Below are positions 7,956 through 11,176 of a DNA stretch of 11,176 nucleotides, piece after piece (position 1 is the first letter of the stretch; every line of letters starts with the position of its first letter). The notes under the pieces are model-generated. The model saw nothing but the letters and a program-made list of their open reading frames with translations. It searched no databases and was not told the DNA's origin. The stretch covers positions 1 to 11,176 of the IMG/VR virus record IMGVR_UViG_2667527959_000006. The stretch is one strand, 5' to 3'. The position numbers and the translations under genes were made by a program. This DNA comes from a virus (Duplodnaviria > Heunggongvirae > Uroviricota > Caudoviricetes).

Positions 7956-8022
7956 AAGTTCCCTCCTACGTTGTCAGGAGGTAATGGTATGCAAAGTAAC
8001 TTCTCAACCGGTCATTTGTTGC
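7956..8022 (-). promoter_or_regulatory. lydC-lydA intergenic region: candidate phage late promoter and an RBS-occluding hairpin
   Basis: Minus strand reads ...GAGAAGTTACTTTGCATACCATTACCTCCTGACAACGTAGGAGGGAACTTGTG. AAGTTACTT is a 9-bp inverted repeat (4-bp arms) centred about 11-12 bp upstream of a TANNNT-type hexamer TACCAT. CCUCCU can pair with the lydA Shine-Dalgarno AGGAGG (6-bp stem, 8-nt loop). Confidence 0.3.
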
Positions 8023-8304
8023 TTAAGAGGCATTTCTATTGAGGTACGAATCGATAATCCTTTGTAACTTTTCAAGAATGAGCCTGTTATTGATGCTGCA
8101 AATAATAGTCACGCAATTCTGAAGACTTTCATCCATACCCTTATATTCCGCGAAATACATGCCTATAAAGCCTGCAAGTACGGCAGCAATACACTCGGCC
8201 ATCAATTGCCTGCATGACGCTTCGTAACGTTTTTCACGAACCCCATTCAGAAACGAATGCACCCCGCCAAGGATGGAGAGGAGCATTATTGTGAAATCAA
8301 ACAT
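8023..8304 (-). CDS. lydC: Holin-like small membrane protein (93 aa), paralog of LydA
   Basis: ATG preceded by GAGGAA 6 nt upstream. Aligns with LydA over the hydrophobic core: LSILGGVHSFLNGVRE...AAVLAGFIG...VTIICS versus LSVIGGIGTFLMDVRD...VAVTAGAVA...VTIASN. The name is from the P1 map as I recall it. Confidence 0.65.
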   Translation of the reverse strand: MFDFTIMLLSILGGVHSFLNGVREKRYEASCRQLMAECIAAVLAGFIGMYFAEYKGMDESLQNCVTIICSINNRLILEKLQRIIDSYLNRNAS

Positions 8305-8431
8305 AACTATTTCCTCAATAGTGAATTAAATCTCATTGGGAAACGGTATGTACTTTGTGATTTCCACACATACTGGTTTTTGTTAATTAAAATCAGCAGC
8401 TTGCTATAAATAACGATAGTGAGCAGAAAAT
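8305..8431. promoter_or_regulatory. Divergent intergenic region between lydC (minus) and cin (plus); probable promoters for both
   Basis: 127-bp AT-rich spacer between divergent start codons. Contains TATAAA (8405-8410) with a weak -35-like TTAATT about 16 bp upstream as a cin promoter candidate, and a GGTATG...CATAC inverted repeat (8345-8372). No element is confidently assigned. Confidence 0.35.
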
Positions 8432-8992
8432 ATGCTAATAGGCTATGTACGCGTATCAACAAATGAACAAAACACTGCTTTACAACGAAATGCCCTTGAA
8501 AGCGCAGGATGTGAGCTAATTTTTGAGGACAAGGCGAGCGGCAAAAAGGCTGAACGCCCTGGGTTAAAAAAGGTTCTTCGTATGCTTTCCAGAGGTGACA
8601 CCCTGGTCGTATGGAAGTTAGATCGTCTTGGGCGCAGCATGCGTCACTTAGTTGTGCTGGTGGAAGAGCTGCGTGACAGAGGCATTAACTTCCGGAGTCT
8701 CACTGACTCCATCGACACCAGTACACCAATGGGGCGCTTTTTCTTTCACGTAATGGGGGCGCTGGCAGAAATGGAACGTGAACTTATTGTTGAACGTACA
8801 CGCGCTGGACTTGATGCAGCTCGCGCAGAAGGTCGAATAGGTGGGCGTCGGCCTAAATACCAGAAAGAAACATGGCAGCAAATGCGGCGATTGCTGGAGA
8901 AGGGCATCCCCCGTAAGCAGGTTGCAATCATCTATGATGTGGCTGTTTCCACTCTTTATAAGAAGTTTCCGGCGTCATCATTTCAATCCTAA
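8432..8992 (+). CDS. cin: Cin site-specific DNA invertase (Hin/Gin/Cin serine recombinase), 186 aa
   Basis: MLIGYVRVSTNEQNTALQRNAL... carries the catalytic Ser of the resolvase/invertase family near the N-terminus; the C-terminal GIPRKQVAIIYDVAVSTLYKK is a helix-turn-helix. Very close to Gin/Hin/Cin as I recall them, and located next to an invertible tail-fibre segment. Confidence 0.95.
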   Translation: MLIGYVRVSTNEQNTALQRNALESAGCELIFEDKASGKKAERPGLKKVLRMLSRGDTLVVWKLDRLGRSMRHLVVLVEELRDRGINFRSLTDSIDTSTPMGRFFFHVMGALAEMERELIVERTRAGLDAARAEGRIGGRRPKYQKETWQQMRRLLEKGIPRKQVAIIYDVAVSTLYKKFPASSFQS

Positions 8993-9009
8993 ACCTTGGT
9001 TTAAGAGAA
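8984..9009. other. cix-type 26-bp crossover site (imperfect dyad around a central TT dinucleotide) at the boundary of the invertible C segment
   Basis: CAATCCTAAACC-TT-GGTTTAAGAGAA; reverse complement TTCTCTTAAACCAAGGTTTAGGATTG resembles the hix/gix/cix consensus (..AAACC-NN-GGTTT..). It overlaps the cin stop codon (8990-8992). Confidence 0.7.
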
Positions 9010-9039
9010 CTCGGTACCAGCGGTGAAAAGATCCCCCTG

Positions 9040-10554
9040 TTGAGCACGGCTAACACATGGAGTGCACGCCAGACTTTCAACGGCGGGATCACCGGGGCGC
9101 TGACAGGGAACGCCGATACCGCAACGAAATTGAAAACAGCCAGAAACATTAATGGCGTCAGGTTCGATGGTTCTGGTGACATTAATATCAATACTCTGGT
9201 ATCGCGCGGTCGCGTAACGGCCCTGGAGGCGAATGCACAGGGAACATCCGGGATTCAGCTGTATGAGGCATACAACAATGGCTACCCTTCCCCCTATGGC
9301 AATGTGCTTCACCTTAAAGGTGCCACCGCTGCTGGCGAAGGTGAGTTATTCATTGGCTGGAGTGGCACGAGCGGTGCCCATGCGCCCGTACATATCCGTT
9401 CGCGGCGGGATACTGATTCTGCCAACTGGTCTGAATGGGCGCAGGTCTATACGTCAAAAGATTCAATTCCCGGCGTCAATGCCAAAGGGGATCAGGATAC
9501 CTCTGGTAATGCGGCTACAGCGACCAAGTTGCAGACAGCATGTACTATCAACGGTGTCTCGTTTGATGGTTCTAAAAATATTGAGCTAACGGCTGAAAAT
9601 TTAAATCTTGAGCGAACAGTAGAATTAGCCGCTGGGTCATTGCAGAAAAATCAGAACGGCGCGGATATTCCTGGAAAAGATACCTTCACTAAAAATATTG
9701 GTGCATGTCGCGCTTTTCACAGTTCTATTAGTACAGGTGCAGGGAACTGGACAACGGCACAATTGATTGAATGGCTGGATTCTCAAGGGGCATTCAATCA
9801 CCCATACTGGATGTGCAAATGTTCATGGTCGTACGGCAATAATAAAATTATAACCGATACTGGCTGTGGAACTATTCATCTTGCAGGTTGCGTTATTGAG
9901 GTTATGGGTAATAAAGGTGCCATGACCATCCGTGTAACAACACCAAGCACTTCCAGCGGTGGCGGAATCACTAACGCTCAATTCACTTATATTAATCATG
10001 GTGATGCTTACGCTCCTGGCTGGCGACGAGACTACAACACGAAAAACCTGCAACCTGCATTTGCTTTAGGGCAGACAGGAAACAGGGTTGCAAATGATAA
10101 AGCTGTTGGCTGGAACTGGAATAGCGGTGTTTATGATGCAGACCTAAAAGGCGCATCAACATTAATTCTTCATTTCAATATGAACGCGGGTAGCTGCCCG
10201 GCTGTACAATTACGCGTGAATTATAAGAACGGCGGTATTTATTATCGTTCAGCGCGTGATGGTTATGGATTTGAGGCTGACTGGTCAGAGTTTTACACCA
10301 CAACCCGCAAACCCTCTGCGGGGGATGTTGGTGCATATACGCAGGCAGAATGTAACTCAAGGTTTATTACAGGTATTCGCCTGGGCGGTCTGTCATCTGT
10401 CCAGACATGGAATGGCCCCGGCTGGTCTGACAGGTCAGGTTATGTCGTTACGGGTTCAGTTAACGGGAACCGTGATGAATTAATTGATACAACACAGGCA
10501 AGGCCAATTCAGTATTGCATTAATGGGACGTGGTATAACGCGGGGAGTATTTAA
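9040..10554 (+). CDS. Tail-fibre variable cassette (Sv'-type), 5'-incomplete and silent in this orientation
   Basis: The frame is open from 8962, through the cix site, to the stop at 10552-10554; 9040 is only the first TTG and has no convincing RBS. The protein has two phage tail-fibre repeats (GNADTATKLKTARNINGVRFDGSGDININT; GNAATATKLQTACTINGVSFDGSKNIELT) and a Gly/Asn/Trp-rich C-terminal region typical of receptor-binding fibre tips. Confidence 0.75.
   Translation: MSTANTWSARQTFNGGITGALTGNADTATKLKTARNINGVRFDGSGDININTLVSRGRVTALEANAQGTSGIQLYEAYNNGYPSPYGNVLHLKGATAAGEGELFIGWSGTSGAHAPVHIRSRRDTDSANWSEWAQVYTSKDSIPGVNAKGDQDTSGNAATATKLQTACTINGVSFDGSKNIELTAENLNLERTVELAAGSLQKNQNGADIPGKDTFTKNIGACRAFHSSISTGAGNWTTAQLIEWLDSQGAFNHPYWMCKCSWSYGNNKIITDTGCGTIHLAGCVIEVMGNKGAMTIRVTTPSTSSGGGITNAQFTYINHGDAYAPGWRRDYNTKNLQPAFALGQTGNRVANDKAVGWNWNSGVYDADLKGASTLILHFNMNAGSCPAVQLRVNYKNGGIYYRSARDGYGFEADWSEFYTTTRKPSAGDVGAYTQAECNSRFITGIRLGGLSSVQTWNGPGWSDRSGYVVTGSVNGNRDELIDTTQARPIQYCINGTWYNAGSI
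9106..9195 (+). repeat. Tail-fibre repeat unit, copy 1 (protein-level repeat within the fibre gene)
   Basis: Residues 23-52, GNADTATKLKTARNINGVRFDGSGDININT; second copy at 9505-9591 (residues 156-184). The two copies are diverged at the nucleotide level. Confidence 0.6.
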
Positions 10555-10556
10555 TT

Positions 10557-11090
10557 ATGATGCACTTAAGAAATATTACAGCTGGCAACCCTAAAACAAA
10601 AGAGCAATACCAGCTAACGAAACAATTTAACATCAAATGGCTTTATACAGAGGATGGAAAAAACTGGTATGAGGAACAAAAGAATTTCCAGTATGATACG
10701 TTGAAAATGGCCTATGACCACAACGGCGTTATTATTTGTATTGAAAAGGATGTTTCAGCAATTAATCCAGAAGGCGCAAGCGTCGTTGAATTACCTGATA
10801 TTACAGCAAATCGCCGGGCTGATATTTCGGGTAAATGGATGTTCAAAGATGGCGTAGTGGTAAAGCGAACTTATACCGAGGAAGAGCAGAGGCAACAAGC
10901 GGAAAATGAAAAGCAAAGTCTGCTACAGCTCGTCAGGGATAAAACCCAGCTATGGGACTCACAGCTACGGCTGGGTATCATTTCCGCCGAGAATAAGCAG
11001 AAATTAACCGAGTGGATGCTCTTTGCGCAGAAAGTCGAATCCACAGACACCTCCAGCCTACCAGTAACATTTCCCGAACAACCTGAATGA
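10557..11090 (+). CDS. Tail-fibre assembly chaperone (U'-type), 177 aa
   Basis: ATG 2 nt after the fibre-gene stop; size and position are typical of Tfa/U-family fibre assembly proteins encoded directly downstream of the variable fibre segment in Mu/P1-type invertible cassettes. Confidence 0.75.
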   Translation: MMHLRNITAGNPKTKEQYQLTKQFNIKWLYTEDGKNWYEEQKNFQYDTLKMAYDHNGVIICIEKDVSAINPEGASVVELPDITANRRADISGKWMFKDGVVVKRTYTEEEQRQQAENEKQSLLQLVRDKTQLWDSQLRLGIISAENKQKLTEWMLFAQKVESTDTSSLPVTFPEQPE

Positions 11091-11093
11091 GAC

Positions 11094-11119
11094 AAGGCCC
11101 GATAGCGGGCCTTAATTTT
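11094..11119 (+). terminator. Rho-independent terminator hairpin after the U'-type gene, probably shared with a convergent gene
   Basis: AAGGCCCG (11094-11101) pairs with CGGGCCTT (11106-11113) around a 4-nt loop ATAG, followed by AATTTTG. It starts 4 nt after the stop codon. Confidence 0.55.
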
Positions 11120-11176
11120 GGCACTGTTGCAAATAGTCGGTGGTGATAAACTTATCATCCCCTTTTGCTGATGGAG

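Follow-up and report, generated by a model that had tools for sequence, protein, structure and literature searches.

The left end of a P1-like C-segment host-range switch with cin, cixL and a silent Sv'-U' tail-fibre cassette, interrupted by IS26

Identity and gene content

The DNA analysed (hereafter the window) is the whole stretch of 11,176 nucleotides that makes up positions 1 to 11,176 of IMG/VR virus record IMGVR_UViG_2667527959_000006. A megablast search of positions 8300-11176 against phage records returned phage P1 as the best match, with 99.4% identity over 98% of the query. Positions 4801-11119 of the window are collinear with positions 28029-34347 of the P1 record (NC_005856) at 99.08% identity and without gaps, window coordinates being obtained by subtracting 23228 from the P1 coordinate, and positions 917-4872 are collinear with the preceding P1 region at 97.9%. 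The genes hxr, ddrB, ddrA, darA, hdf, lydB, lydA and lydC were located on the minus strand, while cin, Sv' and U' lie on the plus strand. By alignment the window is identified as belonging to a P1-like phage-plasmid which is 99.1-99.4% identical to P1 NC_005856 from hxr to U'. Over the region from cin to U' the closest record was a 454-kb plasmid of E. coli ATCC 98082, with 100% identity. The features assigned between the cin promoter region and the right end of the window are as follows.

8310-8393, plus strand: cin promoter region (P2cin at 8310-8336, P1cin at 8361-8393), transferred from predicted promoters in the NC_005856 annotation
8432-8992, plus strand: cin, serine DNA invertase of 186 aa; open reading frame with Pfam Resolvase and HTH_7 matches, annotated cin in P1
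8450-8521, no strand: putative recombinational enhancer (sis) in the 5' part of cin; in the P1 annotation, 'enhancer of Cin-mediated C-segment inversion'
8984-9009, no strand: cixL, 26-bp crossover site with 12-bp half-sites around a central TT (8996-8997), left boundary of the C segment; identical to P1
8986-9608, no strand: C-segment inverted repeat (0.62 kb), left copy, encoding the N-terminal part common to Sv and Sv'; reverse match near cixR
8997-10554, plus strand: Sv', silent alternative C-terminal segment of tail fibre S; 'Sv prime' in P1, in frame with Sc after inversion
10557-11090, plus strand: U', predicted tail-fibre assembly chaperone paired with Sv'; Pfam Caudo_TAP (E=1.3e-35), U prime in P1
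11120-11176, plus strand: left end of an IS26 lying between U' and U, within the invertible segment; terminal repeat GGCACTGTTGCAAA...

The invertase gene and its control region

The product of cin matched the Pfam families Resolvase (E=4e-51) and HTH_7 (E=1.9e-18), and the Ser10 motif YVRVST could be read directly from the sequence. An N-terminal resolvase domain with the active-site serine, followed by a C-terminal helix-turn-helix domain, is the arrangement of a small serine recombinase, and Cin is predicted to be one. It matches P1 Cin at 185 of 186 residues, the sole change being K145 instead of E.

Within the 5' part of the gene, positions 8450-8521 are identical to the annotated P1 enhancer at 70 of 72 bases and were designated a putative recombinational enhancer by homology alone. 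The recombinational enhancer of the Cin, Gin, Hin and Pin switches acts in cis and is Fis-dependent. The two cin promoters were carried over by adding 4800 to their coordinates in the P1-derived locus L001; a promoter scan of the window picked up neither P2cin nor P1cin. One related locus (L021) was considered as a natural flip of cin itself and was rejected, a different resolvase gene having replaced the 3' part of cin there.

The crossover site cixL

Positions 8984-9009 read CAATCCTAAACC TT GGTTTAAGAGAA. Within this 12+2+12 arrangement a perfect 14-bp palindrome, TAAACCTTGGTTTA, occupies positions 8990-9003, flanked on either side by six outer bases of only partial symmetry. The cin stop codon (TAA, 8990-8992) lies inside the left half-site. 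The presence of a 26-bp cix-like dyad at these positions, with the cin TAA contained in it, had been proposed in an earlier note made from the window's sequence, and both statements were borne out.

The exact 14-mer occurs once in the window; when up to two mismatches were allowed, three matches were obtained against 0.41 expected. The two-mismatch core matches, at 7106 and 10353, were rejected as cix sites, as they fail over the full 26 bp. A 26-mer scan with three distinct P1 half-sites gave 24/24 at 8984-9009, at most 16/24 in the rest of the window and 15-18 in shuffled sequence. The 24/24 score is circular, two of the reference half-sites being derived from 8984-9009 itself, and the informative part of the scan is the absence of a second site from the window. 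A further cix site, as would be expected of a p15B-like multiple inversion system, was sought in the window by the same scan, and none scored above shuffled sequence.

The 38 bp comprising cixL and its flanks (8978-9015) are identical in the window and in P1. In window coordinates, the P1 record places the 'recombination site cixL' at 8987-9006, a Cin protein-binding site at 8983-9013, and the crossover, which is also the left boundary of the C segment, at 8996/8997. As judged from this comparison, positions 8984-9009 are base for base the annotated cixL of P1 and the only such site in the window. Two related loci (L020 and L022) match the window up to position 9009, precisely where the 26-bp site ends on its inner side, and continue with another cassette. 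The cix site is thus also a boundary of cassette exchange between relatives.

The Sv'-U' cassette

The reading frame which encodes the fibre segment is frame 1, and cin is read in frame 2. Following a stop codon at 8959-8961, the fibre frame is open from 8962 to its stop codon at 10552-10554. No ATG, GTG or TTG occurs in it from 8962 until the TTG at 9040, and the nearest purine-rich motif upstream of this TTG is GGTGA at 9022-9026, 13 nt away, which is too far for a Shine-Dalgarno sequence, so that there is no credible ribosome-binding site. These results agree with the earlier description of a fibre frame which runs open across the site, in a frame other than that of cin, and has neither a start codon nor a ribosome-binding site of its own there. 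One part of that description has to be narrowed: the frame is indeed open from 8962, but it is fibre-coding only from 8997; positions 8962-8996 are the last bases of cin in another reading frame, where the openness is incidental. Position 8997 is the third base of a junction codon (8995-8997) split by the crossover, and Sv' comprises 519 codons when this one is counted.

The Sv' product gave a weak Pfam match to gp37_C. The downstream gene, U', is identified by its Caudo_TAP match as a probable chaperone, giving the cassette a chaperone of its own, and the exact U' protein is present in many P1-like contigs. Positions 8986-9608 match the cixR-proximal 623 bp of both P1 and the ATCC 98082 plasmid in reverse orientation at 99.0% identity. 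In P1 the two copies of this repeat are identical at 617 of 623 positions, with a perfect stretch of 562 bp. By this match, positions 8986-9608 are identified as one copy of the inverted repeat of 0.62 kb already known from the C segment.

The stretch from the TTG at 9040 to 10554 might alternatively be read as an independent tail-protein gene of 504 aa, in which case the palindrome would be no more than a chance dyad, or one resembling a terminator, where cin ends. A 504-aa 'phage tail protein' is indeed annotated here in related records by PGAP and other gene callers, and cin transcripts could read into the frame, no terminator-like site having been found between cin and the ORF. Against this stand the lack of a Shine-Dalgarno motif at a useful distance from the TTG and the fact that the frame is open and conserved for 14 codons further upstream, exactly to the crossover; this 14-codon stretch belongs to the inverted repeat common to the expressed Sv. 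The dyad, moreover, is the site to which Cin binding and crossover have been mapped in P1. An independent gene is for these reasons very improbable, and the comparison with relatives given below weighs against it as well.

The partner site and in-frame fusion to Sc

In P1, cixR is located 4256 bp downstream of cixL in inverted orientation, and the invertible segment measures 4256 bp. The sequence of P1 cixR is TTCTCTTAAACCAAGGTATTGGATAA. On the opposite strand, the inner half of cixR and the bases next to it repeat the inner half of cixL exactly (TTGGTTTAAGAGAACTCGGT...), and the last bases of Sc make up the outer half of cixR, TTATCCAATACC; the sequence given for cixR together with the end of Sc is TTCTCTTAAACCAAGGTATTGGATAACAGCAA. 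Nine related loci, fetched by means of the exact U' protein, each carry one inner half-site per strand, in inverted orientation and 4246 or 4286 bp apart. An inverted partner at about 4 kb downstream, which the earlier note had named as the feature to look for, is therefore found in P1 and in nine relatives, at distances of 4256, 4246 or 4286 bp. In the window itself, a second inverted cix site was sought in the 2.1 kb downstream of cixL and was absent; IS26 intervenes at 11120. The constant part Sc likewise lies outside the window.

Frame continuity was examined by inversion in silico. P1 Sc is 1361 bases long, that is, 453 codons plus two bases, and the segment supplies the third base. Joining P1 Sc to window positions 8997-10554 produced 973 codons with a single, terminal stop, that is, one open frame of 972 aa, and the fibre segment is thus in phase with the constant part. 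Across the Sc-Sv' junction the product reads ...AVIQY followed by LGLRELGTSGEK... (also given as ...AVIQY followed by LGLRELGTSGEKIPLL...).

The same fusion occurs in nature. In CP122833.1 and in JBCEZN010000021.1 a 972-aa tail-fibre gene precedes the same U', and the last 520 aa of its product differ from the Sv' of the window at no position in the former and at one position in the latter. In both records cin adjoins the other cassette, and by their arrangement the two are identified as carrying the switch in the opposite orientation. Both orientations of the C segment therefore exist among sequenced relatives. The claim that the variable fibre segment is expressed only after inversion onto the constant 5' part is supported by the in-silico fusion and by these natural 972-aa fibres. 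The sequence which gene callers report as a separate tail protein is here the C-terminal part of a 972-aa fibre, and the 504-aa call from TTG 9040 is an annotation artefact.

Proposed operation of the switch

We conclude, with a probability of roughly 0.93, that the window carries the left end of the P1 C-segment host-range switch, consisting of Cin, cixL and the silent Sv'-U' cassette. The orientation seen is C(+) in the terms of the P1 record; it is that shown by the assembly, and the segment can be mixed within a population.

In the proposed arrangement cin reads towards the segment, its last codons and stop forming the outer half of cixL, while the inner half is the first part of Sv'. The Sv'-U' genes would face away both from Sc, the constant part, and from the late promoter of R-S-U and, as Sv' has no start codon of its own, the cassette is predicted to be silent in the orientation seen. 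By analogy with the Gin/Hin family and with P1 itself, cixL and the inverted cixR would each be bound by Cin dimers, which would cut the central dinucleotide with the help of the enhancer in cin. Strand exchange would then invert the segment and place Sv'-U' directly behind Sc, in frame. S' fibres would be made after such an inversion and would confer a different host range.

None of this is new as a system. Cin-mediated inversion of the C segment between cixL and cixR has been described, as has the different host range of P1(S') (bioRxiv 10.1101/2022.07.24.501295; PMC6906374), and the P1 system has been known since the early 1980s according to references cited in the first of these. The cixL and Sv'-U' switch is already known in full detail and is textbook P1 biology.

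The IS26 insertion and the state of this copy

Homology to P1, and to all P1-like matches, ends at window position 11119. Two related loci (CP181948.1 and L013) contain IS26 copies whose left end is identical to the final 57 bases of the window (GGCACTGTTGCAAATAGTCGG...); in them this 57-mer lies 63 bases upstream of a gene for a 234-aa DDE_Tnp_IS240 transposase, and IS26-annotated matches to the 57-mer number in the thousands. Among contigs with the exact U' or DdrB protein, none has IS26 directly after U'. The element entered 29 bp past the U' stop, at the first base of the stop codon of U, which is convergent. The convergent U of the other cassette would start at 11119, and IS26 cuts it off from view. 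Because the element lies inside the segment, cixR cannot be found in this genome at its usual spacing of about 4.2 kb; it would be either at least 5.1 kb away or deleted.

Two outcomes may be set side by side. A simple IS26 insertion is predicted to generate an 8-bp duplication, TTAATTTT, and to leave U, U', Sv, Sv' and all other genes as well as both cix sites intact, adding only 828 bp and extending the segment to about 5.1 kb; the sequence predicted after the right end of IS26 is then TTAATTTT TATTCAGGCTTTTGTGG. An IS26-mediated deletion or rearrangement, on the other hand, would remove U, Sv, cixR and perhaps Sc, freezing the switch. In that case cin, cixL and Sv'-U' would be the remnant of a switch whose cassette can never be expressed, and the site a fossil. 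We regard such a remnant as a serious possibility, though one given somewhat less than an even chance.

Several observations point towards it. IS26 lies within the segment, and the U'-IS26 junction had no covering match among E. coli complete genomes and PLSDB plasmids and no exact match in the genome_contigs (species-representative genomes), viral_contigs and metagenome_contigs collections. The right junction predicted for a simple insertion (the IS26 end, a gap of 0-12 bases, then U) was not found in genome_contigs, a weak negative given that this collection holds one genome per species. IS26 truncates cin in the relative CP181948.1; six contigs with identical DdrB have no cin beside lydC (L014-L017, L019 and L023), and IS26-mediated loss of cin or of the C segment has been reported in P1-like plasmids (PMC6906374). 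Both ends of the window lie 57 bases inside an insertion sequence, IS1 at the start and IS26 at the end, which suggests that it is the whole contig of a short-read assembly. It also traverses the 623-bp repeat without a break, at which short-read assemblies usually break if both copies are present, and this may lean towards loss of the partner, depending on the assembly method.

On the other side, a simple insertion with the TTAATTTT duplication would entail no loss of genes or sites, and cin, cixL and the enhancer are essentially intact. The collections searched exclude the source genome, so the junction negatives say little. An orphan half-switch, with the C segment split by IS26 and the partner site and Sc gone or relocated, is put forward only tentatively, its chances being a little under one half. 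The IS26 insertion inside the segment is the sole non-textbook feature of the locus.

Comparison with related systems

The P1 C segment (NC_005856, 31660-36490) is the same element, with cin, enhancer, cixL, Sv' and U' in the same order, on the same strand and in the same frames. Compared with P1, the window shows 58 substitutions over 6.3 kb, carries IS26 at the stop codon of U (11120), and has an IS1-family element in place of the isaB region at its other end.

The G segment of Mu, inverted by Gin, is a switch of the same kind, with a serine invertase, 26-bp sites, an Sc part fused to Sv or Sv', and the chaperones U and U'. The distal 1.5 kb of the Sv'-U' region of the window is 88-89% identical to Mu S'-U', whereas the proximal part of Sv' is not common to both; the match begins at query position 1339, which corresponds to approximately 9638 in the window. 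In Mu the crossover site beside gin is at the 5' (promoter) side of the gene; that of P1 lies at the opposite end of cin, overlapping its 3' end and stop codon.

The Min system of p15B and the C segments of P7 and D6 also belong to P1-family phage-plasmids in which a Cin-type invertase gene lies beside fibre cassettes; cixL of D6 was annotated by homology with P1. The p15B system has six crossover sites and many cassettes, whereas the window has a single cix site and none inside Sv'-U'. The Hin/hix system of Salmonella shares the recombinase family, the 12-2-12 site architecture and an enhancer inside the recombinase gene. There, however, hin lies inside the invertible segment and it is a promoter which is moved; unlike in the P1 C segment, no alternative coding ends are fused to a constant part.

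Implications

Reading of the raw sequence alone was enough here to recognise a classic case of programmed DNA inversion, together with its start-less cassette and the overlap of crossover site and stop codon. The S' fibre encoded by the cassette is of practical use: with P1(S'), efficient transduction of Shigella flexneri 2a and 5a and of E. coli O3 is obtained (bioRxiv 10.1101/2022.07.24.501295). The IS26 insertion is in keeping with reports that the cin/C-segment switch is being eroded in P1-like plasmids from multidrug-resistant E. coli (PMC6906374). If the partner site and Sc have indeed been lost or displaced, the window would represent a host-range switch which an insertion sequence has frozen, from a P1-like phage-plasmid lineage in the course of being broken up by IS26 and IS1.

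Apparent exchange of fibre cassettes and decay of the switch in relatives

Comparison of the window with related loci indicated that relatives appear to swap fibre cassettes at cix. In two of these loci, L020 and L022, homology stops at position 5293, corresponding to window position 9009, exactly at the inner boundary of the 26-bp cix site. Beyond it lies a different, shorter cassette set consisting of a 150-aa ORF and Caudo_TAP genes.

In a third relative, CP181948.1 (L011, 7211-8030), an IS26 cuts cin short at approximately codon 52, with cixL, Sv', U', U and S all retained. The switch of this locus is locked through loss of the invertase. In JBAOKI010000060.1 (L021), homology to the window reaches only position 8665, at 93.8%, and the place of the 3' part of cin is taken by a different resolvase-family gene (4953-5513), which lies beside the fibre cassettes on the strand opposite to cin. 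The adjoining Sv ORF is, at 569 aa, longer than usual.

Automated annotation placed a 504-aa "phage tail protein" with a TTG start inside Sv' at the following positions:

Window, 9040-10554
ATCC 98082 plasmid (L002), 6741-8255
L006, L010, L011, 8484-9998

This ORF is not a separate gene but a fragment of the start-less Sv' cassette.

Cin and its promoter region

The Cin protein carries Lys at residue 145 (window 8864-8866) vs Glu in the P1 reference (E145K). The DNA of the E. coli ATCC 98082 plasmid is identical at these positions, and this plasmid therefore has the same variant.

A cix-like right half-site, GGTTTTTGTTAA, was located at window 8362-8387, within the predicted P1cin promoter, in the stretch that separates its -35 and -10 boxes. 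It is a candidate match for cixPp, the quasi-site at the cin promoter in the older P1 literature, but when the window was scanned with the P1 half-sites, the full 26-mer at 8362-8387 scored below chance level.

Insertion sequences and the wider lineage

Positions 11120-11176 of the window are the left end of IS26, within the invertible C segment, the insertion point being exactly the U stop codon, 29 bp past the stop codon of U'. No match to this U'-IS26 junction (window 11120) was found in any collection searched (E. coli complete genomes, PLSDB plasmids, and genome, viral and metagenome contigs). At the left end of the window, positions 1-57 are an IS1 end matching the IS1 of P1 itself. The adjoining 58-916 showed no match to the isaB region of P1; they match sequence annotated as IS1-family transposase, with 99.9% identity to another site in the ATCC 98082 plasmid and approximately 95-96% to many IS1-family copies.

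In the cin-U' region, this plasmid (L002, NZ_CP034659.1) is the window's closest relative; at 454,520 bp it is unusually large. It contains the pieces of the window in a different arrangement, matches the IS26 end at approximately 19 places, and has an ISSen4 inserted between lydA and lydC.

The collection indexes the exact 995-aa DdrB of the window in 444 blocks, for the most part on contigs of 5-10 kb (loci L014-L023 were fetched), and its neighbours are often a porin gene, sucrose-utilisation genes, or IS1, IS3 or IS26. This distribution and these neighbours suggest a widespread P1-like remnant lineage eroded by insertion sequences.
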